Assembly: GCA_031423255.1 (NCBI GenBank)
Contig: JANPFD010000022.1
Location: 6,704-70,703 of the forward strand
DNA length: 64,000 bases
Direction: 5' to 3'
DNA from: Myxococcales bacterium
Lineage (GTDB): Bacteria > Myxococcota_A > Polyangia > Fen-1088
The first letter of the stretch is position 1. Every line of letters begins with the position of its first letter. A model generated the notes under the pieces. The model was not told the origin of the DNA. It worked only from the letters and a program-made list of their open reading frames with translations, and did no database searches. Positions 7,348-32,167 of the stretch are shown one piece after another. Position numbers and translations under genes: made by a program.

Positions 7348-7369
7348 GCCGCGTAATTTATCACTTCAG

Positions 7370-17637: not shown

Positions 17638-18668
17638 TGAACGCTCCGCGCGAGCAGCTCTTCGTAGGCCTCGACATGGGCGGGACCGACATCAAGGCCA
17701 CGGTCAGCAACGGCCTGGGCGAGATCCTGGTGAACGACTGCGAGAAGGTTCTCAGCCTGGCCGCCGAGGGGCCGCGCAAGACGGTCGAGCAGCTGGCCAT
17801 GGCGGCGGACAAGGTGCTGGCGGCCGCGGGCAGCAAATGGGAACACGTGGCGGGCATCGGGCTGGACACGCCCGGCCCGGCGTCCCTGGAGGGTGTGTTG
17901 ACCCGTTCCCCGAACCTGAAGCATCCGGACTGGGAGGGCTTCCCGATCCGCAAGGTGTTCGAGCAGCGCACCGGGCGCCCGACGGTCTACGCGAACGACG
18001 GCAACGCGGCTGCGTACTGGGAGTACTACCGCCTGTTCCGCGACGACCCCGAGAAGATCATGGCCGCGGCGATCCTGGGGACGGGCTTCGGCGGTGCTCT
18101 GGTCTGGGGCGGCGAGGTGCTGACCGGCTCGCGTGGCTTCGGCGCCGAGTTCGGCCACATCCGTCTCCCGACGCACGAGATCGCCAGGGACGGCGACGTG
18201 CCCATCTGCGGCTGCACCAAGGCCGGCTGTGCCGAGGCGTTCGTCAGCGTGGCGGCCCTGGACTACTTCCTTCGCAAGGCGCTCAAGCGGCCCGAGCACA
18301 AGAGCCACCCGTTGCAGAAGGTGGCTGACGCAGGTCGCGAGCGGGCGCTGAAGCTGCTGGGGCTCGCGCAAAAAGGAGACACGCTGGCGCAAGAGCTGTT
18401 CGACGCCCAGGCCGACGCGCTCGGCCTGCTGTTCGTGCAGATCGCCAACTGCTTCGACCCCGACGTCTACATCATCGGCGGCGGGCTGACCGACAGCTCG
18501 ACCGAGTTCCGCGAACGGTACATAGGCCGCGTGCGCGCCATCTTCAAGCGCGAGACGTTCCCCGCCGTGGCGAAAGACGCCTCGATCGAGTTCGCGGCCG
18601 ATCAGGACATGGCCGGCTGTCGAGGCGCGGCGTTGCTGGCCCGACAGGCTGCTCAGAAGTCGCGCTAG
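17638..18668 (+). CDS. ROK-family sugar kinase (glucokinase-like)
   Basis: GLDMGGTDIKA ATP-binding N-terminus. ROK zinc motif GHI...CGCTKAGCAE. Confidence 0.8.
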
Positions 18669-20017
18669 CCGCTTCTGAGGTGCCAGGCCTTGGGCTGCAA
18701 GAAGGCGCGGATGCCCCAGGCCGACAGGGTCGAGCCGATGCCGGAGTGCTTGCGGCCGGTCCAGGGTAGGCGCGGGCTGACGCGGTCGCAGCAGTTCCAG
18801 TACACGCTGCCAGCGTTCGCCTGCCGCAAGATGGTTTGCGCGCGGGCTTGGTCGGGCGTGTAGACGCCAGCCGTGAGGCCGTAGTCCGTGTCGTTCATCA
18901 GCGTGACCGCCTCGTCGTCACCGTCGACGACCTGGATGCCGATGATCGGGCCGAAGCTCTCCTCGCGCATCACGGCCATCTGGTGGGTCACGTCGGTGAG
19001 CACCGTCGGCGCGAAGTAGTAGCCACGGCGATCGATGCGCTTGCCGCCGTGGAGCAGCCGCGCGCCTTTTGCCACGGCGTCCTTCACCTGGGTTTCGAGC
19101 GCGGCCAGCTGATCCTTGCGGGCCAGCGGCCCGATGTACGTGTTCTCGTCGGTCGGCTCGCCGACGACGAAGGCGCGCACCACCTCGACGAACGCCTCGA
19201 TGAAAGCGGGGGCGATCGTGCGGTGGACGTAGATGCGCTCGACGGAGCAGCAGCTCTGTCCGGTGTTGTAGAACGCGCCGTCGGCCAGGCTCTCGGCGGC
19301 GGCGCGTGCGTCGGCGTCGTCGCAGACGTACGTCGGGTCCTTGCCGCCGAGCTCGAGCTGCACCTTCACCATGCGGCCGGCGACGGTCTCGGCGATCTTG
19401 CGGCCGGTGCCATAGCTGCCGGTGAAGAAGACGCCGTTCACGTTCTGCGCCAGCAGCGCGCGCCCGGCCTCGCCTGTGCCGACGACGGCGATGAACGTCT
19501 CTTTCGGGACGCCGGCTTCATGCAGCAACGCCTCGATCCGCAGGCCGGTCATGGCTGCGTGCTCGGACGGCTTGTAGAGGACCGTGTTGCCGGTCAGCAG
19601 CGCCGGCACGAAGACGTTCGAGCCGACGAAGTAGGGGTAGTTCCAGGCCGAGATGTTGGCGATCACGCCCAGCGGTTCGTGGGTGGTCTTCTCCTCGAGC
19701 TTCCCGTCGCGCAGCACGACGTCGTCGGCCATGACCTCGGCGGTTTTCTCGAGGAAATAGTCGATCCGTCCCGCCATGGCCGCGATCTCGTTGCCCGCCT
19801 GCTTGATCGGTTTGCCCATCTCGCGCGTCAGCGTCAGCGCCAGGTCCGCCTTGTGCGTGGCCAGCAGGTCCTTGAAGCGCCGGATGGCGGCCAGGCGATC
19901 GGCCAGCGGAGCGGGACGGGCCTGACGGGCGCGCTCGTACTTCGCCGCTATCGAACCGGCGTCGTCCTCGCGCAAGTCGGCGACCACCTCCTCGGTGGCG
20001 GGATTGACGACCTTCAT
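18665..20017 (-). CDS. NAD(P)-dependent aldehyde dehydrogenase (PuuC-like)
   Basis: ELGGKDP, catalytic GQSCCSVER, ~450 aa ALDH. Start ATG ~20017 overlaps the upstream stop. Confidence 0.9.
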   Translation of the reverse strand: MKVVNPATEEVVADLREDDAGSIAAKYERARQARPAPLADRLAAIRRFKDLLATHKADLALTLTREMGKPIKQAGNEIAAMAGRIDYFLEKTAEVMADDVVLRDGKLEEKTTHEPLGVIANISAWNYPYFVGSNVFVPALLTGNTVLYKPSEHAAMTGLRIEALLHEAGVPKETFIAVVGTGEAGRALLAQNVNGVFFTGSYGTGRKIAETVAGRMVKVQLELGGKDPTYVCDDADARAAAESLADGAFYNTGQSCCSVERIYVHRTIAPAFIEAFVEVVRAFVVGEPTDENTYIGPLARKDQLAALETQVKDAVAKGARLLHGGKRIDRRGYYFAPTVLTDVTHQMAVMREESFGPIIGIQVVDGDDEAVTLMNDTDYGLTAGVYTPDQARAQTILRQANAGSVYWNCCDRVSPRLPWTGRKHSGIGSTLSAWGIRAFLQPKAWHLRSG

Positions 20018-20761
20018 CGGCGCTTCTCCACCTCGGCGAGGAATGCGGTCAGCAGCACCTCGGGATCGAGGAACCCGGGTGCGCCCGGGCTCATGAACTC
20101 GGGGTGCCACTGCACGCCGTAGGCAAACGCGCCGCCGTCGTGGCGTACGGCTTCGACGACCCCGTCGGGAACGGACCGCGCCTCGACGACCAGCCCCTTG
20201 CCCAGCTTGTTGAGGCACTGGTGGTGAACGCTGTTCACGCGGCCCCCGGCGGCATACCACTGGCCCAGCATTGCGCCTGGTTCAAATGCCACCTCGTGCT
20301 CGTGCTGGTCGTAGATCTCCCAGTTGCGGTGCATGCGCTTTTCGGGATGGAGCGTCTCGACGTCCTGGTAGAGCGTGCCTCCGAATGCGACATTCAGCAC
20401 CTGCGCGCCGCGACAGACGCCGAGCACCGGCTTGTTGCGGGCCATCGCCAGGCGAATCAACTCCATCTCGTAGATGTCGCGCGCGGGGTCGCCTTCCCAC
20501 TCGGGGCGCAGCGGCTCTTCGCCGTAATGCCGCGGGGACATGTCGGCTCCGCCCTGGAGCACCAGCCCATCGACGCCTTCGAGGAGATCGGCGGCATCCA
20601 GTTTGCCCGCCGCGCGAGGTAGCAGCACGGGCACCGCGCCGCCGGTCATCAGCCAATGAAGCATCGATTCTTCCGCGAACAGCAGCGTCTTGCCCTTGAA
20701 CAGCGGCCGTTTGGGATCCGCGTGGAGAAAACAGGCCGACACCCCGATGCGCGGGCGGATC
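20014..20761 (-). CDS. Gamma-glutamyl-gamma-aminobutyrate hydrolase family protein (peptidase C26 / class-I glutamine amidotransferase-like; PuuD-like)
   Basis: GVCRGAQVLNVAFGG (Cys nucleophile) and VQWHPE. GTG start ~20761 overlaps the ADH stop. Confidence 0.85.
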
Positions 20762-21923
20762 ACAGCGCCTGCTCGAAGATCCTCTGGAAGTCCGCCTTGG
20801 TGACCGGCTTCGGGTTGTTCGGGTGGCAGGCGTCGCCGACGGCGATGGCGACCAGGCGGTCGAGGTGCTCGCGCTTCACGCCCACCTCGCCCAGCGTTTT
20901 CGGGATGCCGATGGCGACTTTCAGCTCTTCCAGCCAGCGCACGAAGTCGGGCGTCCCGACGATCGCCGCCAGGTCGGCGAACTTCTCGGGCACCGCCGAC
21001 GCGTTGAACGCCATGGCGTACGGGATCATGATGCCGTTGGCGAGCCCGTGGTGCAGGTCGCACACCGTCGAGAGCGCGTGGGCGCACGAGTGCGTCACCC
21101 CGAGCCCTTTTTGGAAGGCGACGCCCCCCATCAGGGCTGCATTCAGCATCAGCCCGCGTGCTTCGCGGTGTGCCTCGTCGGTGAGCAACTCCTTGTCGCC
21201 CCTGTCGATGCGGCGCGCGTAGTCGACGCACTTACCGAGGTTGCGGGCGACGAGCCGCAGCCCGGACAGGGCGATCCCCTCGCACATCGGATGGAAGTCC
21301 TTGGCCAGGTACGCCTCGACCAGGTGGGTCAGCGCGTCCATGCCCGTCCCCGCGGTCACCGACGCCGGCAGGGCCATCGTCAGGTTCGGATCCACGAACA
21401 CCCGCTGCGCCAGGAGCCGCGGCGAGAAGATGATCTTCTTCACGTGCGTCTCGTCATCCGAGACCACGGTGCTGCGCCCGACCTCGCTGCCCGTCCCGGC
21501 CGTCGTGGGGATCGAGACGTAGTACGGCAGCTCCTTGTCGATCGGCCGCGCGTCGGGCTTGCCGTCCTCGTAGTCGAATAGATCGCCCGGGTGATGGGCC
21601 ATGAGAGCGATCGCCTTGGCCACATCGATGGCCGCGCCGCCGCCCAGGGCGACGACGGCATCGGCGCCGTGGTCCTTGAAGACGGCGACCCCGGCGGTCA
21701 CCTGCGACTTCACCGGGTTGCCCCACACGCCGGAGAACATCGCCACCGACAGTCCCGCAGCCTCCAGGATCTTCACGACGTCCCGGGCCGGCGGCAGGAG
21801 CGCCAGCGCCTTGTCGGTCACCACCAGCGGCTTTGCGCGGCCGGCGTCCTTCAGCGCGCCGGGTAAAAGGCCGATCGCGCCGGCACCGTACTGGATCCTC
21901 GTCGGGAAACTGAATTGAATCAT
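20760..21923 (-). CDS. Iron-containing (group III) alcohol dehydrogenase
   Basis: MIQFSFPTRIQYG..., GGGAAIDVAKAIA and metal-binding His-rich C-terminal half. Confidence 0.9.
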   Translation of the reverse strand: MIQFSFPTRIQYGAGAIGLLPGALKDAGRAKPLVVTDKALALLPPARDVVKILEAAGLSVAMFSGVWGNPVKSQVTAGVAVFKDHGADAVVALGGGAAIDVAKAIALMAHHPGDLFDYEDGKPDARPIDKELPYYVSIPTTAGTGSEVGRSTVVSDDETHVKKIIFSPRLLAQRVFVDPNLTMALPASVTAGTGMDALTHLVEAYLAKDFHPMCEGIALSGLRLVARNLGKCVDYARRIDRGDKELLTDEAHREARGLMLNAALMGGVAFQKGLGVTHSCAHALSTVCDLHHGLANGIMIPYAMAFNASAVPEKFADLAAIVGTPDFVRWLEELKVAIGIPKTLGEVGVKREHLDRLVAIAVGDACHPNNPKPVTKADFQRIFEQAL

Positions 21924-23290
21924 ATGATCTCGAAGTAGCGGGCCATCTCCCAGTTCGTGACCGCCTTGCTGAACTGCCGCCACTCCCAGTGACGGCTGGC
22001 GACGAAGTGCTCGACGAACGCCTCGCCGAACAGCTCGCGCGCCACCTGCGACTGTTCGAGCCGCACCGTGGCCTCGTGCAGGTTGCGCGGCAAGATCGGC
22101 GCGCTGGTGTCGGCATAGCCGCTGCCCGCGACCGGACCGCGCGGCAGCTCCAGCTTCTTCTCGATGCCGTAGAGGCCGCTGGCCAGCGCCGCGGCCATCG
22201 CCAGGTAGGGGTTGGTGTCCGAACCGTTGACCCGCGTCTCGAGCCGCGTCGACTTGGCGCTGCCGGGGATCACCCGCATGGCGGTGGTGCGGTTGTCGAT
22301 GCCGTAGTTCGCCCGGGTCGGAGCCCAGGCGCCCTCGACGAGGCGTTTGTAGCTGTTCACCGTCGGAGCGAAGAACGGCAGGATCTCCGGCAGGCACAGC
22401 ATCTGCCCGGCGAGGTAGCTCTTGAAGGTCGCGCTCATCTTGTGGGGATCGCGCTCGTCGAAGAACAGGTTCTTGGCGCCGCTCCTGTCCCACAGGCTCT
22501 GGTGGATGTGGCCGCTGCAACCGGGCAGGTCGGCGCTCCACTTGGCCATGAAGGTGGGCAGGATGCCGAAGCGGTGGCCGATCTCCTTGGCGCCAGTCTT
22601 GAAAAGGACGGCGCGGTCGGCGGCCTCGACAGGATGGTCGTAAAGGATCGCCGCCTCCAGGACGCCCGGGCCCGTCTCGGTGTGCAGTCCCTCGATCGGG
22701 ACACCGAAGGCGAGCATCTCGTCCATGAGCGCGTTCAAGAAAGGGCGGTTCTGGTTCATCCGCACCACCGAGTACCCGAACATGCCGGGCGTCAGCGGAG
22801 CAGGCTTGGCGTAGCCCTTGTCGGCCAGGCTCTGCGAGGTCTCACGGAAGTTGAACCACTCGTACTCCAGCGAGCTCAGCACCGAGAATCCGGCCGCGTC
22901 GAGGCGCGCCACCACCTTCTTGAGCAGCTGCCGGGGGCAGATCTCGAGCGGCGCGCCGCCCGCCCAGAAGTCGCCCAGCAGGAACGGGACCTTGTCGTCC
23001 CAGGGGACCTCTCGATAGGTCGATGTGTCCAGGCGCACTTCGGCGTCGGGGTAGCCGGTGTGCCAGCCGGTGTAGCGGGCGTTGTCGTAAACGACGTCGG
23101 CCGAGTCCCAGCCGAACACCACGTTGCAGAACCCGAGCCCGCCGTCCAGGCCCGACAGGAACTTGTCCTTGTGGATGTACTTGCCGCGCAGGACACCGTC
23201 GATGTCGGTGACCGCCACCTTCACCTTGGCGGCGCCGGCCTTCTCGACCCGCTCGACGATCTCCTTGCCGGTGAGGGCGGCCTTGCGCAT
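21920..23290 (-). CDS. Glutamine synthetase-family gamma-glutamyl-amine ligase (PuuA / gamma-glutamylpolyamine synthetase-like, GS catalytic domain)
   Basis: GS-I-like catalytic region (...HTETGPGVLEAA..., NPYLAMAAALASGLYGI), ~456 aa. First gene of an overlapping four-gene operon. Confidence 0.85.
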   Translation of the reverse strand: MRKAALTGKEIVERVEKAGAAKVKVAVTDIDGVLRGKYIHKDKFLSGLDGGLGFCNVVFGWDSADVVYDNARYTGWHTGYPDAEVRLDTSTYREVPWDDKVPFLLGDFWAGGAPLEICPRQLLKKVVARLDAAGFSVLSSLEYEWFNFRETSQSLADKGYAKPAPLTPGMFGYSVVRMNQNRPFLNALMDEMLAFGVPIEGLHTETGPGVLEAAILYDHPVEAADRAVLFKTGAKEIGHRFGILPTFMAKWSADLPGCSGHIHQSLWDRSGAKNLFFDERDPHKMSATFKSYLAGQMLCLPEILPFFAPTVNSYKRLVEGAWAPTRANYGIDNRTTAMRVIPGSAKSTRLETRVNGSDTNPYLAMAAALASGLYGIEKKLELPRGPVAGSGYADTSAPILPRNLHEATVRLEQSQVARELFGEAFVEHFVASRHWEWRQFSKAVTNWEMARYFEII

Positions 23291-23334
23291 GCACGTCGAG
23301 TATCGGTCCACCCGACGAGGGGTGCAAGGCGGGG

Positions 23335-24822
23335 TCAGCGCAGGTTCAGGCGGGCGCGCGTCGCCCAGAAGTTCCCGGTGTCGGCGATCTCGCCCAGGCC
23401 CGGGGCGGCGCGGGTGTCGATTCCCAGCGCGTCGCCCAGCGTGACCCAGAGTGAATCGATCTTCTGGCCGGCGTACACCGTTCCGGGCAGGCCGCTGCGC
23501 CCGAACAGCTCGGGCGATCCGGCATGGCCGGAGGTGCCGCCCGAGACGCGCAGGTGGCGTCCCGGTGTGATGATGCCGCCGCCACGTCCGGCCACGACGA
23601 TCGGCAGATCATGCACGTCGTGGGTGGCTCCGTGAGACATGGAGCCGGTGTAGACGGCCATGCAATTGTCCAGCAACGTGCCGCCGCCTTCGCCCGGGAG
23701 CGCCTTCAGCTTGCCCACCACACGGGCGTAGCGCTGGGTGTTCCACTCCTCGATGCAGCGCAGAGCGAGGATGCGCTCCTCGGCGGTGGCGGGGCTGTTC
23801 GGCGCCTCGCCGTCGACGGTGCCCTGGCTGTAGTGCGAAAGACCGTTGTGGTATTCGTGCGACCCCAGCACGAACTTCAGCCGGTCGCGCCTGGCAGCGT
23901 CGAGTGGCGTGCCGTCGCCGAGCGTCGCCGGTGGGGTGATGAAGCCGTACTTCATGCGCACCGTCTCGATGTCCGACTGCCAGGTGACCAGGCGGGTGAG
24001 ATCGCACTGGAACGCCAGCACCACCAGGTCGCCGATGAGATCCATCTGCTTCTCGAGGCTGCTGCCCGCCGGATAGGCGAAGGCGGCCTCCTGGTTCTTG
24101 CCACAGGTCGACGGCGGCAAGGCCAGCTGGCGCTGCACCTCCGTCAGACTCTGGAGGTATTCCGCCAGGCGCGCCTGATCCTCGCGGCCAAGCCGGGTGT
24201 TCAGGGACTTCGCCTGCGGCAGCACGAAATCCACCAGACCCTTGCGGTGGCGGATGGCGCGCGCAGCGGCTTCCATCGCCGCCGGGTCGGAGGCGCCGAA
24301 CAGGTCCAGGTACATCGCGTGCGGATCGGGGTTCTGGGGAGTGACGATGTAGTTCGTCGTCGAGGTCCAGGACATGAACATCTTCGACGCCTGGCCGTTG
24401 AGCGTCCGCCGTGTGCTCAGCTCGAGGGACTTGCGCCGTAGGCCCAGCTTGCGCAGGCGCGAGGAGAGGAACTGATCGTACGAAGGGCGGGCGACGATCT
24501 TGTCTTGCGACGTCGGACCGCCAGTCAGCATCTCGGCCTGGGGAGAGTGCGCGTCCTGCCCGGATGCTCGGTCGTGGTTGTCGATGCCCGACAGCACCAG
24601 GAGGTCCGATTTGTACGGATCGAGCGAACGGAGCGTCGGCGCGAGCGAGAACGGCATCTCCGGCACCGACGAGACCATCGATCGGCGGTAAAAGCCGTTC
24701 GGCGTGTTGAAGATCAAGAGCCGCACCGGACGGGCCTGGGCGCGTGCCTCCATGACTTCGAGGAACGGCAGCGCCAGGGACAGGCCGCCGCCGCGGAGCA
24801 TCGTCCGGCGTGAGAGCTTCAT
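23335..24822 (-). CDS. DUF1552 family protein with twin-arginine (Tat) signal - module A partner
   Basis: MKLSRRTMLRGGGLSLALPFL Tat motif. Conserved FQCDLTRLVT and C-terminal HDVHDLPIVVAGRGGG shared with three paralogs in this window. ATG 24822 overlaps the upstream stop. Confidence 0.85.
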   Translation of the reverse strand: MKLSRRTMLRGGGLSLALPFLEVMEARAQARPVRLLIFNTPNGFYRRSMVSSVPEMPFSLAPTLRSLDPYKSDLLVLSGIDNHDRASGQDAHSPQAEMLTGGPTSQDKIVARPSYDQFLSSRLRKLGLRRKSLELSTRRTLNGQASKMFMSWTSTTNYIVTPQNPDPHAMYLDLFGASDPAAMEAAARAIRHRKGLVDFVLPQAKSLNTRLGREDQARLAEYLQSLTEVQRQLALPPSTCGKNQEAAFAYPAGSSLEKQMDLIGDLVVLAFQCDLTRLVTWQSDIETVRMKYGFITPPATLGDGTPLDAARRDRLKFVLGSHEYHNGLSHYSQGTVDGEAPNSPATAEERILALRCIEEWNTQRYARVVGKLKALPGEGGGTLLDNCMAVYTGSMSHGATHDVHDLPIVVAGRGGGIITPGRHLRVSGGTSGHAGSPELFGRSGLPGTVYAGQKIDSLWVTLGDALGIDTRAAPGLGEIADTGNFWATRARLNLR

Positions 24823-26822
24823 GGCGTCCCTCCCCGGCGGGAGCGGAAGCTGCGGCCCGTCACCACCCGCCGCACCAGTTCCTTGAACGGGACGCGGTTG
24901 GCATCGGCAGACACCTGGTGCACGCCGCAGGCCTCCTGACCCGGGACCTGACGCCCGAGCGCGTAGACCATCAGACGTCGGCTGGCGCAGTTTCCGAGCG
25001 CCTGCTTGCCGGCCAGCACCTTCGCCAGCTGGGTGTGGTCCCTGAACGTCTCGCCCGTCGGCAGGTAGCCGCTGGCGTCCACCGGATTGCGCTTTGGCCC
25101 CTCGACGGTGCGGTATTTGCCCTGCGGACCGAAGTGCTCGAGACCGAAGCCGATCGGCTCCATGTTGGCGTGGCAGGAGATGCAGGTGCCCTGAGCGTGC
25201 ATCAACATCTGTTCTTTCTTTGGCAGGTCGAGGTTCCGGACCTTGTCGATGAGGGATTCCACCTCGGGCGGCGGCGGCGGTGGCGCCGAGCAGAGCAGGT
25301 TGTCGAGCACGTAGTGGCCGCGGATGACGGGCGCGGTCTCGATGTCGGGCGAGGACAGGGTGAGGAAGGCGGCCTGGGTCAGGATGCCGCCGACGCGCGC
25401 CGTACCCGCCGTCGGGACCTTGGCGAAAGCGGGGTCGCCCGCCGGCAGGCCGTAGTGCGTCCGCAGGGCGGCATCGACGAAGGTGAAGTCGGCGTCGACG
25501 AGGCGTGCGACCGGAAGCTGTGGGTTCGACAGAAGCTCCTGCATGAACAGCTCTGTCTCCTTCGCCATGCTGGTCCGCAGCGCCGGTGCGACCGTGTCCT
25601 CGTTGTCCAGCTCGCCGAGCCGCAGCCACTCGCGCGCGAATCCGCGCAGAAGCGCGCTCCGGCGCGGGCTGGCGTAGAGCCGGTCGAATTGAGCGGTCAG
25701 CACCTGCGCGTTTTTCAGCTGGCCCATGCCTGCCAGCCGGAACAGCTCGTCGTCGGGCATCGAGCTCCAGAGGAAGTAAGAGAGGCGCGTCGCCAGTTCG
25801 TGGTCGCCGAGGGCGCGTACCCCGGTGGCACCCGCGGGATCCAGCTCCACCTGGTACAGGAAGCTCGGCGTCAGCAGCACCGACTGGAACACCAGCTTCA
25901 TCCGCTCCTCGAAGATGGTGCCGAGAACGGTCTTGTCGTACTGGCCGAGCATCTCGGTCACCTCGGTAGCCGTGGCCGGCCGGCGGTAGGCACGCGGCAG
26001 GAAGCGCTCGAGGATCTCCTGCGCGCAGGCGCGCTCGTTGCCGGCAATCGGGCGCGAGCAGGCCATGGTCCTGGCGTAGGCGGCGTTGGTGGCGGCGCCG
26101 GCGAAGAAGGTGTCGACCGCGCGGATGCTGCCGTCGATCAACCCCTTGGTCAGCGTGTCGTTGATGAGATTCGAGGCCTCGTCGACGCGGGTGAAAGAAT
26201 AGGCGGTGGTCTCCGCGGGCAGCGCGGCGGCAGAGTTGAAGGTGTCGGGCAGGCCGAGCAGATCGCGTACGGTGTTGGCGTATTCGGTGCGCGTCAGGCG
26301 GCGCAGACCGTTCCAGGCGACGTCCGGCTCGCCGGGCAAGGAGTAGATCCACTCGCGGACGATGCGCAGCTCGTCGTTGGTCATGCGCGTGCCCGACGGC
26401 GGCATCTCCAGCGCCATGATCCGCTCGTCCATCCGGACCAGGCGGTCCATCTGTGCGCGCGCCGTGGCCTCATTTGCCAGGAGCTTGTCCATGGCGAACT
26501 TCCCGGACGGCGCCACACCCGAATGGCAGGTCACGCAATTGCGCACGAGGATCGGTTTGACCTGCTGCTCGAAGCTGATGGAGCTGTTGTCGACGCACAG
26601 CTTGGCCGGGACGAGCGTCGGGTTGCTCACCGGGTCGTTCGGGGGCGGAGGCATCCCGGGGCCCGGAGGGTTGAGGGGATTCAGCGGGTTCAGAGGATCG
26701 ACGGGCGGCGTCCCGTCGCTGTCGCCCGGGTCGCCTCCGATGTCGCCCACGCATGACGCAAGGATCGCTGCCAACCCCAAACAACAAAGATGGCGCACGG
26801 GCACGAGGCTCTCGTAAGGCAA
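24819..26822 (-). CDS. DUF1592/DUF1588/DUF1587/DUF1585-family protein with N-terminal CxxCH (Planctomycete cytochrome-c-like, PSCyt) - module A
   Basis: Lipoprotein-like N-terminus. CVTCHSG near the N-terminus, C-terminal CISCHANMEPIGFGLEHFG. Family hallmark ...TRTEYANTVRDLLG... and ...AYRRPATATEV.... Confidence 0.85.
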   Translation of the reverse strand: MPYESLVPVRHLCCLGLAAILASCVGDIGGDPGDSDGTPPVDPLNPLNPLNPPGPGMPPPPNDPVSNPTLVPAKLCVDNSSISFEQQVKPILVRNCVTCHSGVAPSGKFAMDKLLANEATARAQMDRLVRMDERIMALEMPPSGTRMTNDELRIVREWIYSLPGEPDVAWNGLRRLTRTEYANTVRDLLGLPDTFNSAAALPAETTAYSFTRVDEASNLINDTLTKGLIDGSIRAVDTFFAGAATNAAYARTMACSRPIAGNERACAQEILERFLPRAYRRPATATEVTEMLGQYDKTVLGTIFEERMKLVFQSVLLTPSFLYQVELDPAGATGVRALGDHELATRLSYFLWSSMPDDELFRLAGMGQLKNAQVLTAQFDRLYASPRRSALLRGFAREWLRLGELDNEDTVAPALRTSMAKETELFMQELLSNPQLPVARLVDADFTFVDAALRTHYGLPAGDPAFAKVPTAGTARVGGILTQAAFLTLSSPDIETAPVIRGHYVLDNLLCSAPPPPPPEVESLIDKVRNLDLPKKEQMLMHAQGTCISCHANMEPIGFGLEHFGPQGKYRTVEGPKRNPVDASGYLPTGETFRDHTQLAKVLAGKQALGNCASRRLMVYALGRQVPGQEACGVHQVSADANRVPFKELVRRVVTGRSFRSRRGGTP

Positions 26823-26926
26823 TCGGCATGCCCGGGAAGAGCCTGGAGATGTCGCGGATCTACCAGTGACGCCGGGATGATCGCGCCGGGCGCATGCGAT
26901 CTGGTGGATCGCACCCCGTCACCTTC

Positions 26927-27978
26927 TCAGGGAGGGGGCAGAAGCACCCGGAGGTCGGGCGGCATGTCCTTGCCGTCGCGGAGATCGCCCCAGAACACCA
27001 TCCGCCCGTCCATGGTGACTGCCACCGCCGACATGTAGTTCATGAGGACGAACCGCGCCCGCAGCCCGGCTGGCGGGCGCGCGCTGCCTCCGGCGCCCCA
27101 GCAGGTGATGCCATCATCCATCCTGACCGCGCAGGTGGCCGTGTTTCCCGTGGCGATCTCGCGTCCCTTGAGGCCCGCGGGAACGTTGATGGCGCTGCTG
27201 GCCGCGCCCCAGCAGACGACGCTGTCGTCGAGTGTGATCGCGCAAGCGTGGGAGTTGGTGCCGTCGTAGAGGCCACCGACGGCGATCCGCTTCGCCTTCA
27301 GATCGGCGGGTGGGGCCGGCGCCCCGGGGCCCCAGCAGACGACGCGGTCGTCGCTGGCGATCGCGCAGTCGAAGACGAGAGAGGCGATGCGTTTGGCCTG
27401 CAGACCGGCGGGCGGCGTGTGGCCTGCCTCGCCCCAGCAGGTGACACTCCCGGCGCGGCCCAGCGCGCAGGCGTGGACGTTCCCCGAGGTCAGCGCCACC
27501 GGATCGACCACCCGGGGAGGCCGGATCGTACCCATGAAGGCGCCCCAGCAGCGGATAGCCTGATCGGCTGCCGGTGGCTCCTTCAGGATGGAACAGGCGC
27601 CCGTGTGGTGCCCCGTGAGCGCCACTGCGTTCAAGTTCGCCGGGGCCTGATGCCGGGCCCCGCCGTTCGCGACCCCCGCTACCCGTCCGAAGCAAGTGAC
27701 CAGGGACGCGGTGTCCGCGACGCAGACCGCGAATGGACCCAGGCCGATGCTCTGGAACTGAGTGGTCGACGTGCTCGGCGGCGACTCGGGGCGATTGCCG
27801 TCGACGGGAGCCGGCGGGCGGTCGGCGCCGTCACGCCCTGCGCCCGCGCGATCCTGACCGGCGTCGTCGACAGGATCGTCCGCCGAGGCATCCGGCTCGG
27901 CGGGAGACGGGGGATCGGTCGCCCCGTTCGTGGCGCTGCAGCCCGCGATCACCAGGAGAGCCAGCAGCCCGCGCACGC
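26927..27978 (-). CDS. Lipoprotein with RCC1-like (regulator of chromosome condensation) beta-propeller repeats
   Basis: GTG start 27978, 12 bp after the kinase stop. LLALLVIAGCS lipobox. Repeated ...HACA/TCA...DG.V.CWG... units (VTCWG, VVCWG, ITCWG). Confidence 0.6.
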
Positions 27979-27989
27979 CTTCCAGGATA

Positions 27990-29984
27990 CTACTTCGCCA
28001 GCTTGAACACGCCGCTGGATTCGCTGCCCGTCCAGTAGAGAGCCCGGGCATCGACGACCACGCGGATCGGACCCCGCGTGTGGCCCACGGGCAGGTTGAC
28101 GACCTGGCCGCCGCGGCGGCTGACCCTGCTGACGGTGTGTCCCGAACGGCTCGCGAAGTAGATCCAGTCGCTGTCCAGCGCGATGCCGAGCGCCGTGTAC
28201 TGTCCGCGCGCCAGTTCGGTCGGTGGCGACAGCGGAGCGGCGCTCTTGGCGAGCATGTTGATGGTACCACCGTTGAACGTGGTCCAGAAGATCGCTTCCC
28301 GATCGACGGCGATCCCCGAGGGCCGCGATTGATTGGTCGCCAGCACCACGAACCGACCGAGGGGTTCGCGCTTGGACCATCGGCGCACCGTGCCCGCGGT
28401 GCCTCCTTGGCGCTCGGTCCAGTAGACGTTCTCGTCGTCGACGGCGATGGCGCCGGCGTCGGCGCCTGTGGCGATCGTCTCCAGCGATGTTCCGTCCTTG
28501 GTCACGCGCTTGACCGTGCCGTCGGTGCTGCTGCCGAAATAGACGTGGGTGGCGTCGGCTGCGATCTCCCAGGGTTGCGCCTGGTCGCTCACCAGCACGC
28601 GTTGCGCGCCGCCGGACTTGGAGGCGCTCACCACGCGGCCCCTTCCCCACTCGGTCCAGTAGACGTTCGTGTCGTCGAGCGCCAGGAATCTCGGGTCGCC
28701 TTCACCGCCGGAGACTTGCAACCGCGTCTTCGGGTCGCCGTTCTTGGCGATCTTCACCACCGTCTTGGCGCGCAGGTTGGTCCAGTAGACGTGGGCCTCG
28801 TCGACGGCGATGCCGTAAGGGGAACCCTGGTTGGCGGCCAGGAGGATGGGCTGGCACTGTCCACCGACGCAGGCACCTCCCAGGCAAGAGTGGTTGCAGG
28901 CGCCGCAGTGATCGGCGGCGGTCTGCAGGTCCGCCCCGCAGGGTGGAGGCGCCGGCCGCAAGGCGCGCCATCCCGTGAAGGTGGCCATCAGAGCGACGGC
29001 GCCGATCAGCAGGGGCGCTCGCCGGCGGGCGCGCGCCTTCACGCGCAACTCCGCCACGCGCATGCGGCGCTGCTCCAGCGCGGGCGCGGCAAGGTCGGCG
29101 ACGTACTCGGCCACGGCCGAGGGGTCGGCGAGCGGACCGGTCTCGGCGATGCGCCGCCGCAGCTCTTCCGCGGTGGGGCAGCGTGCGTCGACATCCTGGA
29201 TCAGCGCCGAGGCGACCGCCTCCGCGAGGGGCTTCGGTAGCGACGGATCGACGGTGCTCAACAACGGTGGCTTCTCGGTCACGACGCGCAGACCCGTGGC
29301 GATCTCCTCGTCGCCCTCGAACAGCCGCCGGCCGGCGAACACCTCCCAGGCGACGGCGCCAGCGGACCAGACGTCGGCGCGTCGATCCAGGGGAAGGCCG
29401 CGCGCTTGCTCGGGCGACATGTACGCCACCTTGCCCTTGACCGTCCCGGTGCGCGTGACCGTCAACCGGCTCGCCGCCTTGGCGATACCGAAGTCGGTCA
29501 GTCGGCAGACGCCATCGATGCCGACCAGCAGGTTCTGCGGCGAGAAATCCCGGTGCACCACACCCAGCGCGAAGCCGCGATCGTCCTTCAGCTCGTGAGC
29601 GGCGTGGAGTCCGGCCAGGCCGTCGCACAGGATCCGGCGGCCGATGTCCGGCGGGATCTTGCCGCCCGCGGCGGCGAGCAAGCCGGCCAGGCTGTCCCCC
29701 TCGATGTACTCCATGGCCAGGAAGACGCCGGCGGCCTCGTCTCCCACGTCGAGGATCGGCACCACGTTCGGATGGCGGATGCGCGCGGCGAGCTTCGCCT
29801 CCTCGATGAGGTCGGTGATCCATTCCCCCGACTCGCGCAGGTGCGGATGCACCAGCTTCAGGGCCACGTCGCGCTGGAAGCCCGCCGGCCCCGACTGCCG
29901 CGCCAGGTAGACGGTGGCCATGCCGCCCGTCGCGATCGGCAAGAGCAGCTGGTAACGACCGATCCGCTGCGGCACCTCGGGCAA
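27990..29984 (-). CDS. Eukaryotic-like Ser/Thr protein kinase with TM segment, Cys-rich module and extracytoplasmic 7-repeat YWTD (LDL-receptor class B-like) beta-propeller
   Basis: Kinase motifs HRDFSPQN, DFGIAK, YMSPE. TM LLIGAVALMATF. Cys-rich stretch CGADLQTAADHCGACNHSCLGGACVGGQC. Seven ~43-aa repeats ending VYWTN, VYWTE, VYFGS, VYWTE, IFWTT, IYFAS, LYWTG. Confidence 0.8.
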   Translation of the reverse strand: MPEVPQRIGRYQLLLPIATGGMATVYLARQSGPAGFQRDVALKLVHPHLRESGEWITDLIEEAKLAARIRHPNVVPILDVGDEAAGVFLAMEYIEGDSLAGLLAAAGGKIPPDIGRRILCDGLAGLHAAHELKDDRGFALGVVHRDFSPQNLLVGIDGVCRLTDFGIAKAASRLTVTRTGTVKGKVAYMSPEQARGLPLDRRADVWSAGAVAWEVFAGRRLFEGDEEIATGLRVVTEKPPLLSTVDPSLPKPLAEAVASALIQDVDARCPTAEELRRRIAETGPLADPSAVAEYVADLAAPALEQRRMRVAELRVKARARRRAPLLIGAVALMATFTGWRALRPAPPPCGADLQTAADHCGACNHSCLGGACVGGQCQPILLAANQGSPYGIAVDEAHVYWTNLRAKTVVKIAKNGDPKTRLQVSGGEGDPRFLALDDTNVYWTEWGRGRVVSASKSGGAQRVLVSDQAQPWEIAADATHVYFGSSTDGTVKRVTKDGTSLETIATGADAGAIAVDDENVYWTERQGGTAGTVRRWSKREPLGRFVVLATNQSRPSGIAVDREAIFWTTFNGGTINMLAKSAAPLSPPTELARGQYTALGIALDSDWIYFASRSGHTVSRVSRRGGQVVNLPVGHTRGPIRVVVDARALYWTGSESSGVFKLAK

Positions 29985-30007
29985 TCCTATATGATCGAAG
30001 GTTCACG

Positions 30008-31315
30008 ATGACGGACGAGCTGCCCACCGCGGTCGGCCCGCGGCTGGAGACCGCCGACGAGCCCGCCTCCTTCGTTCTGGTGGTCGTGGAAGGTCCCGAG
30101 GCGGGACGCACCTTCGACCTCGCCCCGCGTGCGTTCGTCGGCAAGAGCGAATCGTGCGACATCCGCCTTGGCGATCCGGAGATCTCGCGGCGCCACATCG
30201 TGCTCGACTCGACCGACGGGCGGCTTCGACTGACCGACCTCGGGTCGACGAACGGCACCGTCGTCGGCGGCGTGGCGGTCCTGGACGCTTACCTCGGCGA
30301 GGGACAGGAGGTGCGCATCGGGTCGACGCGCTTCCGTGTCGATCGACGCAGTGGCGGCGAGCCGCAGCGTCCGCCTGCACCGGGGTTCGGCAAGCTGATC
30401 GGCGGCAGTCCGGCGATGCAGAGGATCTACCCGGTCTGCGAGCGGCTGGCAGCGCACAACGTGCTGGTGTTGATCGAGGGTGAGACCGGCACTGGCAAGG
30501 AGGTGCTGGCCGAGGCGCTCCACGAGCAGGGCCCGAGGGCCGCCGGCCCTTTCGTCGTGTTCGACTGCACGGCGGTGCCGCCGAACCTCGTCGAGAGCGA
30601 GCTGTTCGGCCACGAGCGCGGCTCCTTCACCGGCGCGATGAGCTTGCGCAAAGGGCTGTTCGAGCAAGCGCATGGCGGTACGCTGCTCATCGACGAGATC
30701 GGGGATCTGGATCCGGCGCTCCAGCCGAAGCTGCTGCGGGCCATCGAGCGCGGCGAAGTGAGGCGCCTGGGCGGCGCGCAGCCCATCAAGGTCGACGTGC
30801 GGATCCTCGCGGCCACGCGGCGCGATCTGGACCGCGAGGTGCAGGCTGGGCGTTTCCGCGATGATCTGTTTCACCGCCTGGCCGTCGCGCGTATCGAGCT
30901 GCCGCCGCTGCGCCGCCGCAAGGGAGACGTCGACAAGCTGGCGCAGCACTTCTTCGCGCAGCTGGGTGGAGCCGGCAGCGTGTCGACGGCGCTTCTGGCC
31001 CGCTGGCGCGACTACCCGTGGCCGGGGAATGTGCGCGAGCTGAGGAACGCGGTGGCCCGGCAGATCGTGCTCGGCGATCTGGCCGACCAGCCCGTCGAGG
31101 CCGACCTTCCGGCGAAGGCGAGCGATGTCGTCGATCAGGTGCTCGCGATGCGGTTGCCCCTGACGCTCGCGCGGCAGAAGGTGATCGCGGACTTCGAGCG
31201 ACGCTACGTCGAGCGCGTGCTGGAAGAGCACGGCGGCAACGTGGTACGGGCCGCCCAGGCCTCCGGGATCGCGCGGCGCTACCTGCAGAAGCTGAAAGCC
31301 CGGCAGGGCAAGTAA
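30008..31315 (+). CDS. Sigma-54-dependent transcriptional activator with N-terminal FHA domain (FHA-AAA+-Fis HTH)
   Basis: FHA signature (...GRTFDL...IGKSESCDIRL...ISRRHIVLD...LGSTNGTVV). Walker A GETGTGKE, GSFTGA, FRDDLFHRL. C-terminal HTH. Confidence 0.85.
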   Translation: MTDELPTAVGPRLETADEPASFVLVVVEGPEAGRTFDLAPRAFVGKSESCDIRLGDPEISRRHIVLDSTDGRLRLTDLGSTNGTVVGGVAVLDAYLGEGQEVRIGSTRFRVDRRSGGEPQRPPAPGFGKLIGGSPAMQRIYPVCERLAAHNVLVLIEGETGTGKEVLAEALHEQGPRAAGPFVVFDCTAVPPNLVESELFGHERGSFTGAMSLRKGLFEQAHGGTLLIDEIGDLDPALQPKLLRAIERGEVRRLGGAQPIKVDVRILAATRRDLDREVQAGRFRDDLFHRLAVARIELPPLRRRKGDVDKLAQHFFAQLGGAGSVSTALLARWRDYPWPGNVRELRNAVARQIVLGDLADQPVEADLPAKASDVVDQVLAMRLPLTLARQKVIADFERRYVERVLEEHGGNVVRAAQASGIARRYLQKLKARQGK

Positions 31316-32167
31316 CTACCCGCGCGGCTTGCGCGCCGAGAACCGCCCGCCGAACATGCTCACGGGGAAGGCCCGTCCCGCGAAGTAGGTGTCGATCGCC
31401 TCCTTCACTTGCAGGAACGTCTCCTGCATCTCGGAGCCGCTGCCGACCAGATCCTTCCAGCGGGCCAGGGGACCGAACTCGATCACCGGTGCGTAGAAAA
31501 ACTCGCGGCCGCTCCGGAACACCAGCTCCCAGCCCTGCAGTTCGGCATCGACGGGTTTCCAGCCGGCGCCCTCCATGTGCAGCGCCACGGTCTCCGGCGC
31601 CGGCGGCTCGTTCGCCCGGTAGACGTCCAGCTTTGCCAGCGCTTCCTTGCGCCCGTGGCGCACCAGCACCTCTCGCAGCAGATCGAGCGGCTTGGACCAC
31701 GTGCCGCGCAGGAGCGTGGCGATCACCACCTGCGCGCCGCGCTTGGCGACGCGAAAGTAATCCGCCAGCACGGCAGCCGGATCTGGCAGCTCGCCGAACG
31801 GGAGGTTGGCGATGATGAGATCGAAGGTCTCTTCCGCGAAAGGAAGCTTGGCGCCGAGCCCGTGCGCCCGGAAGAAGACCCGACGGCCGACGTGCTCCTG
31901 ATCGTGGACGCGCACCCGCGCCAGGTCGAGCAACGCCTGCGAGGGATCGGTGGCGACGATGCGGCTGTCCCCGTCCACCCGGTGCGCGAGCTCGGCCGTC
32001 AAAGCGCCGGTGGCGCAGCCGACCTCCAGCACCATCGCCCGCGCTGGCACCGTGGCGGTACGCAGCAGCATCTCCGCGAGGCGCTGGCCCACGAGCGGGT
32101 AGACCTCGTCATCGAAGACGCGGACCAGGCGGGAGGGTGACGGCGTCGAGGGCAACGCAGGCGCCAT
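31316..32167 (-). CDS. Class I SAM-dependent methyltransferase
   Basis: VLEVGCATGALTAELA motif I and acidic motif II DLIIAN. Confidence 0.7.
   Translation of the reverse strand: MAPALPSTPSPSRLVRVFDDEVYPLVGQRLAEMLLRTATVPARAMVLEVGCATGALTAELAHRVDGDSRIVATDPSQALLDLARVRVHDQEHVGRRVFFRAHGLGAKLPFAEETFDLIIANLPFGELPDPAAVLADYFRVAKRGAQVVIATLLRGTWSKPLDLLREVLVRHGRKEALAKLDVYRANEPPAPETVALHMEGAGWKPVDAELQGWELVFRSGREFFYAPVIEFGPLARWKDLVGSGSEMQETFLQVKEAIDTYFAGRAFPVSMFGGRFSARKPRG

Follow-up and report, generated by a model that had tools for sequence, protein, structure and literature searches.

Does a receptor kinase with an extracytoplasmic β-propeller signal to the transcriptional activator encoded divergently beside it, and does the propeller lipoprotein encoded behind the kinase take part? 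The first-pass annotation of this locus, which lies in a 64-kb stretch of myxobacterial DNA (the window), had proposed a complete circuit leading from a receptor kinase to phospho-dependent transcription, with two propellers as candidate ligand sensors. The three genes, which encode the kinase, an RCC1-like lipoprotein and an FHA-domain sigma-54 activator, were confirmed where that annotation had placed them. We favour, with a probability of about 0.55, the reading that the locus provides a one-step route from a Ser/Thr kinase to sigma-54 transcription, of a kind widespread in Polyangia and equipped here with an unusually large sensor. The proposed kinase-activator link is kept in this reading, but the lipoprotein as a co-sensor is not.

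The kinase gene (27990..29984, minus strand) encodes 664 amino acids from a TTG start; the identical Logan gene call (P0001) is 661 amino acids long, with a GTG start at 29975. Its Hanks-type catalytic domain (29184..29936, minus strand; residues 17-267, Pkinase 111.7 bits) aligns with the structures of PknB, Stk1 and StkP at E~1e-35 and contains the VAIK Lys (VALK, Lys43), HRD, DFG and SPE motifs, as well as an activation loop rich in Thr (LTVTRTGT). In the catalytic loop, HRDFSPQN, Ser occupies the canonical Lys position, a replacement by Ser or Thr that is clade-wide (120 of 120 nearest homologues). A single transmembrane helix, read from the translation (APLLIGAVALMATFTGWRA; 28962..29018, minus strand; about residues 323-341), follows the motif RARRR, and by the positive-inside rule the kinase domain would be cytoplasmic and the C-terminal part periplasmic. 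The Cys-rich module that had been noted after this helix is a six-Cys knot (CGADLQTAADHCGACNHSCLGGACVGGQC; 28851..28940, minus strand), with six Cys within residues 349-377 and the family consensus DxxNCGxCGHxCLGGxCxxGxCQP, modelled at pLDDT ~96. The same module is annotated as PF04885 (Stig1) in several family members; a Pfam scan of the kinase protein did not detect PF04885.

Behind the knot lies a predicted seven-bladed β-propeller of the YWTD/NHL/Vgb-lyase superfamily (27993..28850, minus strand), built from seven repeats of ~42 amino acids. AlphaFold2 modelled it as the first reading had proposed, with 27-28 strands forming seven blades (pLDDT 96.3, pTM 0.93), which indicates that chance does not account for the repeats and, with the single helix, agrees with the proposed receptor-type kinase with a periplasmic propeller. 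An aromatic motif recurs at residues 400, 442, 482, 521, 566, 609 and 650 (spacing 39-45 amino acids), preceded by GIAVD, AIAVD, GIALD or similar. The repeats had been described as ending in YWT(N/E/G) after GIAVD; their number stands, but the motif sits mid-blade rather than at the blade end, and only four of the seven contain YWT (YWTN, YWTE, YWTE and YWTG), the others reading FWTT, YFGS and YFAS. Similarly, the claimed LDL-receptor class B signature is supported by homology to YWTD propellers (130 bits for LDLR, 1ijq), but the Asp of YWTD is kept in none of the seven repeats and PF00058 scores below threshold (18.4 versus a cutoff of 21). In the Pfam scan of the ectodomain no propeller model reached threshold, Vgb_lyase scoring 45 against a cutoff of 50, so that of the two profiles suggested earlier, Ldl_recept_b and RCC1, only the latter was recovered, in the lipoprotein (RCC1_2, 30.1 versus 22). 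A profile of the family fits the PknD sensor roughly as well as it fits the YWTD propellers of LDLR/LRP; in overall fold, seven-bladed virginiamycin B lyase comes closest. The suggestion that such a signature is uncommon in bacteria fails for this lineage: the ectodomain matched 23,132 cluster representatives at E<=1e-3 (616 at E<=1e-30), and where sources give organism names among the matches listed, all are Polyangia/Myxococcota. The propeller module is very common in Polyangia but is rarely fused to a kinase.

The start of the activator gene (30008..31315, plus strand) lies exactly 23 nt away from that of the kinase gene, as first reported. The gene encodes a 435-amino-acid enhancer-binding protein (FHA 57 bits, Sigma54_activat 216 bits, HTH_8 present). 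It consists of an N-terminal tail, an FHA domain (~22-112), an AAA+ domain (130-296) with a Walker A motif GETGTGK and a GSFTGA loop, a lid and HTH_8 (393-428). The closest solved-structure relatives of the FHA domain (30071..30343, plus strand) are GarA and OdhI (E 1e-11), and G45, S60, R61, H63, N82 and G83 are present. The earlier statement that FHA domains read phospho-Thr is less safe here than supposed: Lys46 replaces the canonical phosphate-contacting Arg after Gly, which is found in 0 of 81 family members, the position being Q, T, K, S or H. The N-terminal tail (MTDELPTAV) holds a candidate phospho-acceptor, Thr7 (codon 30026..30028, plus strand), whose column is Thr in 74 of 81 members within the motif [DE][DE]xxT[VLAI][LAVI], the surrounding residues being variable. 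The divergent starts are separated only by a 23-nt spacer (TCCTATATGATCGAAGGTTCACG; 29985..30007), and therefore both promoters must overlap neighbouring coding sequence; neither a sigma-70-like nor a sigma-54-like consensus was found in the spacer. No convincing sigma-54 promoter was found within the locus, and the window holds 3 near-consensus sites compared with 4.4 expected. Sigma-54-like sites are enriched in related activator loci (35 versus 15.4 in shuffles), and several adjoin activator genes.

On the other side of the kinase, the lipoprotein gene (26927..27976, minus strand; 349 amino acids, GTG start) begins 13 nt past the kinase stop, adjacent as noted earlier although the gap is not 12, and is preceded by a ribosome-binding site (GGAAGG). 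The lipobox (VIAGC/S) and the RCC1_2 score bear out its description as a lipoprotein with RCC1-type CWG repeats. A disordered, Pro/Asp-rich linker of ~60 amino acids leads to a propeller most of whose blades carry a C...CWG pair; the AlphaFold2 model (core pLDDT >90) indicates that this is a real seven-bladed, disulfide-rich propeller, and the top Foldseek matches were ACR4/CR4 'crinkly' ectodomains, BLIP-II, UVR8 and RCC1. Next on the same strand come a DUF1592/1588/1595/1587/1585 (PSD/PSCyt) protein (24819..26822, minus strand), 104 nt downstream, and a DUF1552 (HXXSHH) protein with a Tat-like signal (23335..24822, minus strand), whose gene overlaps the preceding one by 4 nt. The whole minus-strand string runs from the kinase through the RCC1-like, DUF1592, DUF1552 and GS-like genes to Fe-ADH, with gaps of 13, 104, -4, 23 and -31 nt. 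Kinase and lipoprotein probably share a transcript. In one homologue context, an RCC1-like gene is followed by a gene for an NHL-like propeller.

Polyangia genomes are crowded with kinases and sigma-54 activators alike, and the two divergent genes could be neighbours by coincidence, serving unrelated pathways, with the activator under another kinase or none. A genome scan recovered 80 activator homologues, all from Polyangia (55-64% identity). A kinase lies within 6 kb at 66 of these loci and is the immediate neighbour (gap <400 nt) at 36, in all four orientations, compared with an expectation of ~2-5, at most ~5, based on the So ce56 genome, which encodes 317 kinases in 13.03 Mb (PMC2887360); the binomial P for this adjacency is 3e-21. 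The pairing thus recurs across related genomes. Six of the 36 are divergent as in the window, among them the most similar locus, L006 (64% identity for the activator and 63% for the kinase domain), and the closest activator relatives, L006, L037 and L051, share both this layout and the most similar kinase domains (55-63% identity). The window kinase also falls within the HRDx[ST]PxN clade, as do 32 of the 36 activator-adjacent kinases. In keeping with coincidence, 14 of the 80 activator loci lack a kinase within 6 kb, the activator FHA lacks the canonical Arg, and the exact combination of fusion and activator is a singleton, since the other three kinase-propeller fusions (L001, L117 and L118) have no activator in the flanks covered, which for L117 and L118 include little or no readable upstream sequence. 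None of 34 activator-adjacent kinases scanned carries a window-type propeller. At two loci the fusion has split versions, with the propeller as a separate secreted or lipoprotein gene: L044 encodes, in this order, the activator, a propeller protein and a kinase in one overlapping operon, and in L046 the activator is convergent with genes for a kinase, a 316-amino-acid protein and a propeller lipoprotein. Because a kinase is the immediate neighbour so much more often than expected, the kinase and the divergent activator are very probably signalling partners, and coincidence, although the alternative to be taken most seriously, is unlikely.

Another possibility, quite unlikely in our judgement, is that the kinase propeller and the lipoprotein form a two-propeller sensing unit, or that the kinase monitors the periplasmic DUF1592/DUF1552 system of the same gene string. 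The 13-nt gap with its ribosome-binding site, the continuous string to Fe-ADH, the single pairing of RCC1-like and NHL-like propeller genes, and the lipoprotein's best structural match, the ectodomain of the plant receptor kinase ACR4, would all fit such a unit. Against it, a kinase, activator or window-type propeller was found at none of 33 RCC1-like loci and an RCC1-like gene at none of the 80 activator loci; closer RCC1-like homologues instead adjoin DUF1592/DUF1552-type pairs, in five contexts. The proposal of joint sensing is not upheld by these counts, nor is a conserved three-gene unit, as the other three fusions also have no RCC1 neighbour in the flanks covered. The lipoprotein's function probably belongs with the downstream cassette, and with four DUF1592/DUF1552 pairs in the window, nearness to one is cheap. 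The least probable of the alternatives is that the ectodomain has enzymatic activity, as a lyase of the Vgb type or a lactonase, instead of sensing a ligand, or that the protein is a pseudokinase scaffold that has lost its catalytic-loop Lys. Vgb_lyase stays below its cutoff, and a search of the 67-member propeller alignment for a conserved catalytic constellation found none: neither His nor Glu is conserved at any column, and the near-invariant positions all belong to the repeat scaffold (Gly, Cys, Tyr, Trp, Asp and Ala). Although the Lys is missing, the VAIK Lys, HRD Asp, Asn, DFG and activation-loop Thr are all retained, and the substitution is clade-wide, not a sporadic loss. RIO and Bud32 kinases, in which S or T fills the corresponding position, are active enzymes.

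Beyond gene neighbourhood, the kinase-to-activator route that we favour is one we infer. The propeller would bind a ligand in the periplasm, with a peptide, protein or glycan as the likeliest kinds; its family conserves no catalytic constellation. Binding may alter oligomerisation or activity of the kinase, with phosphorylation of the activation-loop Thr that is nearly invariant among activator-adjacent kinases. The kinase would then phosphorylate Thr7 of the activator; the FHA domain would read the phospho-Thr of its own or of a neighbouring subunit, in the manner of GarA/OdhI, and this contact could control how the AAA+ ring assembles and, through it, whether a putative target is transcribed with sigma-54. 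Judged from its residues, catalysis by the kinase is putative, and the missing catalytic-loop Lys counts against the route, as do the absent phosphate-contacting Arg, the lack of a convincing sigma-54 promoter within the locus and the singleton status of the fusion beside an activator. The split versions of the fusion and the enriched sigma-54-like sites of related loci speak for it.

The kinase most resembles Mycobacterium tuberculosis PknD (PDB 1RWI/1RWL), in which a Hanks kinase is likewise joined through a single helix to a highly symmetric propeller of the same superfamily (116.6 bits for 1rwi with the family profile); PknD-derived Pizza designs were among the top Foldseek matches. M. tuberculosis kinases, including PknD, phosphorylate FHA proteins (works cited in PMC6213207). 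Unlike PknD, the window kinase has a propeller of seven instead of six blades with a six-Cys knot in front of it, YWT-like rather than NHL repeats and a catalytic-loop Ser for Lys; it comes from a diderm, with a periplasmic sensor, and its partner is a sigma-54 activator. The class B propellers of LDLR, LRP2, LRP4, LRP6 and nidogen share the GIAVD...(V/I)YW(T) signature (about 170 bits for the two propellers of LRP6 and 79 for nidogen), and in LDLR EGF modules flank the propeller as the small disulfide module does here. They differ in having six blades and the YWTD Asp, and the window propeller, which falls short of PF00058, has a Cys knot instead of an EGF domain and resides in a bacterial periplasm. 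Sequences of virginiamycin B lyase (Vgb, PF24684) score only about 60 bits with the family profile compared with 117-130 for PknD and LDLR; the window propeller falls below the Pfam cutoff, and its family has no conserved catalytic residues.

The lipoprotein is closest in structure to the plant CRINKLY4/ACR4 ectodomain and Streptomyces BLIP-II (21-24% identity, E 6e-15 to 1e-11). The crinkly repeats of ACR4/CR4 are reportedly Cys-stabilised, as are the lipoprotein's blades, and BLIP-II is a secreted protein-binding inhibitor. Unlike these, the lipoprotein is lipid-anchored, bacterial and free of a kinase fusion, and its conserved genomic partners are DUF1592/DUF1552-type pairs. For the activator, a model exists in the GarA/OdhI switch of Actinobacteria, in which PknB/PknG phosphorylates an N-terminal Thr that the protein's own FHA domain subsequently binds. 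The activator has a similar short tail with a conserved Thr, but its phosphorylation is putative, the FHA domain lacks the canonical Arg, and the output is a fused AAA+ sigma-54 activator rather than an enzyme inhibitor. Like the FHA enhancer-binding proteins of Myxococcus xanthus (Jelsbak, Givskov & Kaiser 2005, cited in PMC12288465 and PMC4320627), it has an FHA domain in place of an NtrC-like receiver and is proposed to be under Ser/Thr-kinase control, although its family consists of Polyangia paralogues. To the idea that Ser/Thr kinases control myxobacterial FHA-activators, which reportedly originated with those authors, our analysis adds a quantified pairing with one kinase clade, a conserved N-terminal Thr and the missing Arg.

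The three genes lie where the first-pass annotation placed them, with small corrections from the open reading frames (ORFs) and Pfam matches. The kinase ORF runs on the minus strand from 29984 to 27990 (664 aa). The lipoprotein gene (26927-27976, minus strand, 349 aa) follows directly downstream, its GTG start at 27976 separated from the TAG stop of the kinase by 13 nt (rather than the 12 bp claimed) with GGAAGG inside. On the plus strand, the σ54 activator (30008-31315) starts at 30008, divergently and 23 nt from the kinase start, exactly as proposed, and this spacer has no room for separate kinase and activator promoters. The window has a G+C content of ~69%, and its close protein relatives are all from Polyangia (Polyangiaceae, Sorangium, Labilithrix and Byssovorax).

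To assess the conservation of the kinase-activator pair, we used the activator protein as a query, taking one genome per species. This search returned 80 loci, all in Polyangia and with 55-64% identity over the full length of the protein, some genomes contributing more than one paralogue. Kinase domains in these loci were found by tblastn and the matches extended to ORFs. A Hanks kinase was present within 6 kb of the activator in 66 of the 80 loci and was its immediate neighbour (gap <400 nt) in 36, with 19 pairs arranged activator-then-kinase, 8 kinase-then-activator, 6 divergent and 3 convergent; in a further group, exactly one small gene separates activator and kinase. Sorangium So ce56 encodes 317 kinases (PMC2887360) and its genome record is 13.03 Mb long, so only ~2-5 immediate adjacencies would be expected by chance in 80 loci (binomial P = 3e-21). 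The closest locus, L006, retains the divergent layout, with 64% identity in the activator and 63% in the kinase domain, which is as near to the window kinase as any homologue found. The link between kinase and activator thus not only holds but is strengthened by comparative data.

The sensory portion of these kinases is far less constant. None of the 34 activator-adjacent kinases scanned has a propeller of the window type; 8 of them carry PEGA domains, and the membrane-spanning ones mostly have a periplasmic tail of 75-150 aa. Many such tails end in CxPP[FY]x[IV]DxxGxKxYKxxC[LF] (two-Cys C-termini in L014, L029, L035, L042, L043, L060, L061, L067, L068, L070, L072 and L081), a motif pattern that may mark a miniature sensor or a docking peptide. 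As adjacency is kept while the propeller is replaced by PEGA domains or short tails, we conclude that the cytoplasmic kinase and the FHA activator form a conserved core and that the sensor is variable. The earlier description of a complete circuit overstates the case, the target and the ligand being hypothetical and the catalytic and phospho-reading competences of the two proteins predicted.

The kinase itself is, as claimed, a receptor-type Ser/Thr kinase, with a membrane helix, an ectodomain and a Pkinase domain (PF00069, 111.7 bits versus a cutoff of 31.7, residues 17-267). Structures of PknB, Stk1 and StkP match this domain along its length (E ~1e-35); its VALK, EEAK, HRD, N and DFG elements align with the Stk1 structure, and SPE is also kept. 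Across 34 related kinases, K51, E70, H151, R152, D153, N158 and D171 are invariant and the activation-loop Thr is nearly so. The catalytic loop (~29520-29543) reads HRDFSPQN, with Ser in place of the Lys of Ser/Thr kinases. The D-L-K-P-x-N loop is an indicator of Ser/Thr specificity, and most Sorangium kinases have its Lys (PMC2887360), a residue that we sought in the catalytic loop of the window kinase and found to be absent. Ser or Thr occupies the position in all 120 of the nearest homologues and in 32 of the 36 activator-adjacent kinases. Because the substitution is clade-wide whereas most Sorangium kinases have Lys, the HRDx[ST]PxN kinases constitute a distinct clade.

The partner protein is the FHA-domain σ54 enhancer-binding protein that the first-pass annotation described. 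Pfam assigns it FHA (PF00498; 57 bits, cutoff 20.7), Sigma54_activat (216.2 bits), AAA_lid_14 and HTH_8 (31.5 bits) domains; its AAA+ domain has a Walker A motif, GETGTGK, and the loop GSFTGA, compared with the family consensus GAFTGA. Among solved structures, those nearest to the FHA domain are of GarA and OdhI (E 1e-11), proteins in which a kinase phosphorylates an N-terminal Thr that is then bound by the protein's own FHA domain. In the 81 activators (the window's own and those of the 80 loci), the ~20-residue tail preceding the FHA domain is variable except for one column, which is Thr in 74 of 81 and lies in the motif [DE][DE]xxT[VLAI][LAVI]. In the window this is Thr7 (MTDELPTAV; codon 30026-30028, plus strand), which, judged from this conservation, is the best candidate for a GarA-like phospho-acceptor.

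The FHA domain departs from the canonical form at the Arg of its Gly-Arg pair, where the window protein has Lys46 (codon 30143-30145, plus strand). None of the 81 activators has Arg at this position, which is instead Q in 37, T in 21, K in 12, S in 6, H in 3 and another residue in 2. Phospho-reading nonetheless appears plausible, with S60, R61 and K46 as putative contacts, because G45, S60, R61, H63, N82 and G83, the canonical Ser-x-x-His and Asn among them, show little or no variation even though the Arg is absent.

We also searched for promoters through which the activator might act. Allowing one mismatch, TGGCAC-N5-TTGC occurs three times in the window versus 4.4 expected, and a GG/GC-anchored scan gave no site from 17.5 kb to 32.1 kb; neither scan found a credible σ54 promoter in or beside the three-gene locus. 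The sole σ54-like site nearby, TGGCGCCTGCGTTGCC (32151-32166, minus strand), matches 9 of 12 scored consensus positions and overlaps the annotated start of a convergent methyltransferase ORF that abuts the 3' end of the activator gene. It would be usable only if the methyltransferase starts at a downstream GTG, and is no better than chance. A σ70 and terminator scan of 20-33 kb was uninformative (0 promoters, and 2 terminator-like sites versus 4.6 expected), and an Rfam scan of the window found no RNA families.

In the 80 related loci, 35 sites agree with the consensus at 10 or more of its 12 positions, compared with 15.4 in shuffles, and several of them closely flank the activator gene on one side or the other. 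Three Sorangium loci share a conserved TGGTACGTCG(T/C)TTGCT site ~270 bp past the activator stop (~7651 in L020, ~7674 in L025 and ~7640 in L027). In L027, from So ce56 (NC_010162, 5.572-5.585 Mb) and the locus in which ORFs were read, the site lies upstream of a gene for a secreted chitinase-like protein (7777-9210), which, from inspection of its translation by eye, we take to be of GH18 type with two repeated putative carbohydrate-binding modules. This gene is a possible direct target of the paralogous activator, and the site counts suggest that the FHA-activator family probably drives nearby σ54 promoters in some genomes.

The ectodomain had been described as a YWTD propeller of the LDL-receptor type. 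It does contain seven repeats, with aromatic motifs at residues 400, 442, 482, 521, 566, 609 and 650, and six Cys after the membrane helix and ahead of the first blade, in agreement with the Cys-rich module noted there. The motif reads YWT in four of the seven blades and FWT, YFG and YFA in the others; the Asp of YWTD is present in none. At 18.4 bits, Ldl_recept_b (PF00058) stays below its cutoff of 21, so the HMMER check proposed for it fails, and no individual repeat is significant, although some members of the propeller family have precomputed PF00058 matches. Similarly, Vgb_lyase (PF24684; 45 bits, cutoff 50) and DUF5050, now named LRP1-like beta-propeller (23.4, cutoff 27), fall short, NHL (PF01436) is not listed for the protein at E ≤ 1, and no Pfam propeller model exceeds its curated cutoff on the ectodomain.

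Relatives of the propeller were collected with the ectodomain alone, given that kinase-domain matches dominate a search with the full-length protein, in which only P0001 (an identical gene call) and P0119 (another fusion) cover the ectodomain. An alignment of 66 homologues (67 members with the window protein) has a near-perfect sevenfold consensus, LAxxQxxPxGIAVDxxxVYWTxxxxGxVxxxxxxGG, with a VYWT core, preceded by the Cys module DxxNCGxCGHxCLGGxCxxGxCQP. AlphaFold2 with this alignment gave a confident model (pLDDT 96.3, pTM 0.93) whose 27-28 strands form seven four-stranded blades, supporting the propeller and excluding the six blades that define the YWTD and NHL/PknD types. Foldseek against the PDB returned the PknD-derived Pizza6, the YWTD propellers of LRP6, LRP4 and LRP2, and virginiamycin B lyase (Vgb) at E ~1e-13 to 1e-15. 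The family profile matched PDB sequences of Pizza7H (141 bits), LDLR (1ijq, 130 bits, E 1e-36), PknD (1rwi, 116.6 bits), nidogen (79 bits) and Vgb (~60 bits), as well as LRP2, LRP4 and LRP6. On the basis of these structure and profile searches, the ectodomain belongs to the YWTD/NHL/Vgb superfamily and has seven blades, and in sequence it is about equally near to the animal YWTD propellers and the PknD sensor. The homology to YWTD propellers thus stands, without the Asp, the sixfold geometry or a PF00058 score above threshold. The label YWTD is best loosened to that of a YWTD/NHL-like propeller with seven blades.

The best Foldseek TM-scores (0.74-0.82) belong to the seven-bladed Vgb, on which the fold can be superposed. 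A Vgb-type enzyme, with a His/Glu metal-binding catalytic site, was considered; we rejected this reading because, in a column-wise count over the 67-member alignment, no His or Glu column reaches 90% conservation. Only scaffold residues are conserved in the family, and for this reason we read the ectodomain as a binding module. The supposed rarity of the signature does not hold for this lineage, an exhaustive HMMER search having recovered 23,132 cluster representatives with E ≤ 1e-3, of which 616 reach E ≤ 1e-30. Most top matches are proteins of 300-550 aa without a kinase domain, and only 4 of the 257 relatives retrieved also have one.

Three other kinase-propeller fusions (P0119, P0317 and P0285) have neither an activator nor an RCC1-like gene beside them in the flanks that could be read, there being little or no upstream sequence in L117 and L118. 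One of these, P0317 (L117, 568-3462; 964 aa), additionally includes a cupredoxin/copper-binding domain and adjoins a SCO1/SenC gene, which hints at a copper-related variant of this sensor architecture. Two activator loci encode stand-alone propellers. In L044, the activator, a secreted Cys-knot propeller (7299-8636) and a kinase form, in that order, one overlapping operon. In L046, the activator is convergent with an operon encoding a kinase (HRDFSPQN loop, 58% identical to the window kinase), a protein of 316 aa and a propeller lipoprotein with seven repeats (7337-8536). Because the propeller family is so abundant, these two arrangements do no more than suggest that the window kinase has counterparts in which kinase and propeller are separate proteins. 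Within the window, a second and unrelated propeller-based sensor is encoded at 10916-13909 (plus strand), a large histidine kinase with Reg_prop/Y_Y_Y periplasmic propeller repeats, HisKA_3 and HATPase_c.

The gene downstream of the kinase encodes a putative lipoprotein, beginning with VRGLLALLVIAGC followed by SATNG, in which a lipobox was read by eye. RCC1_2 (PF13540) exceeds its cutoff of 22 with 30.1 bits, passing the HMMER check suggested for it, and paired Cys and CWG are invariant in most blades of the family, so the description of RCC1-type CWG repeats was right. An AlphaFold2 model from 39 sequences has a core with pLDDT >90 and ~21 strands, after a disordered linker of ~60 aa following the lipobox. 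Foldseek ranked the CRINKLY4/ACR4 ectodomains best (24% identity, E 6e-15), along with BLIP-II, UVR8 and RCC1, at a probability of 1.00, so that the core has the RCC1-type fold of seven blades.

Two explanations for the position of this gene can be weighed: that it supplies a second propeller as co-sensor of the kinase, as initially proposed, or that it belongs to the DUF1592/DUF1552 cassette on its other side. The 13-nt gap makes co-transcription with the kinase likely, but functional coupling is unsupported, as no kinase, activator or propeller gene was found at any of 33 loci with RCC1-like homologues, and no RCC1-like gene at any of the 80 activator loci. The cassette has positive evidence. 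DUF1592 and DUF1552 genes precede one RCC1-like gene in L003 (P0377, 54% identical) and L005, and two in L086; the P0381 contig has the order PSCyt2/PSD1, DUF1501, RCC1-like, NHL-like, and the P0398 contig the order DUF1592, DUF1552, ECF sigma, a 391-aa protein, RCC1-like. In the window, a DUF1592 gene that overlaps a DUF1552 gene lies 104 nt downstream of the lipoprotein gene. On the other side, such pairs are absent from the RCC1-like loci L004, L087, L089 and L090 (in L087 and L004, the genes that precede the homologues are neither DUF1552 nor DUF1592), and a single-protein metagenome scan yielded mainly remote relatives, at 20-38% identity, whose short contigs had no informative neighbours. 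We assign the lipoprotein to the cassette from these homologue contexts and the window order, with the caveat that DUF1592/DUF1552 pairs are dense in the window. In the 104-nt gap, a short hairpin without a T-tract (TGCGATC-CACCA-GATCGCA; 26875-26895, minus strand) might separate the kinase-lipoprotein transcript from the pair, either as a weak terminator or as a site of processing.

Four pairs of DUF1592-type (PSD/PSCyt) and DUF1552 (HXXSHH) genes are present in total, at 23335-26822 (minus), 46164-49156 (plus), ~49267-52709 (minus) and 58741-61808 (plus). They are interspersed with genes for an esterase (42664-43854), a polysaccharide lyase (43730-44875), a GH106 rhamnosidase (54040-56796) and a LacI regulator (56819-57874), which suggests that they are part of polymer-degradation loci. 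After the DUF1552 gene nearest the lipoprotein come glutamine-synthetase-like and Fe-alcohol-dehydrogenase genes (20760-23311, minus strand; gaps of 23 and -31 nt), with an aldehyde dehydrogenase at 18665-20260; these may be genes for γ-glutamyl-amine catabolism that share a transcription unit with the DUF1552 gene.

In myxobacteria, eukaryote-like kinases number in the hundreds and σ54 activators in the dozens, yet to our knowledge almost no wiring from kinase to transcription factor has been described in them. The locus and its 80 relatives provide a concrete, testable pair, comprising a kinase clade, an activator family and, in Thr7, a single candidate phospho-acceptor. One mechanism would have the HRDx[ST]PxN kinases and the Arg-less FHA activators as a co-evolved pair that gives Polyangia a major alternative to NtrB/NtrC, working in a single step. 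The N-terminal Thr and the FHA domain would act as a GarA-like switch inside the transcription factor, and sensors such as this abundant propeller would be plugged in either by fusion to the kinase, as in the window, or through a periplasmic protein encoded apart from it, as L044 and L046 illustrate. We regard this reading as a whole, with its non-canonical kinase and activator and its plug-in sensors, as tentative, at a probability of roughly 0.3. If both proteins are active, a Lys-less kinase and an Arg-less FHA domain would widen the definition of a functional Hanks kinase and FHA domain. The exchange of propeller, PEGA domain and short CxPP...C tail amounts to a natural experiment in sensor swapping.

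Receptor kinases with FHA effectors are already familiar as a class, and the locus introduces no new principle; its most interesting aspects are family-wide, namely the Lys-less kinase clade, the Arg-less FHA domain and the near-invariant Thr7. Each part has a precedent: PknD of Mycobacterium tuberculosis for a propeller sensor kinase, GarA and OdhI for an FHA phospho-switch, and the FHA activators of Myxococcus xanthus for an FHA domain in a σ54 activator. Related to the YWTD modules of animals and the PknD module of mycobacteria, and with one blade more than either, this abundant bacterial propeller bears on the evolution of the fold.
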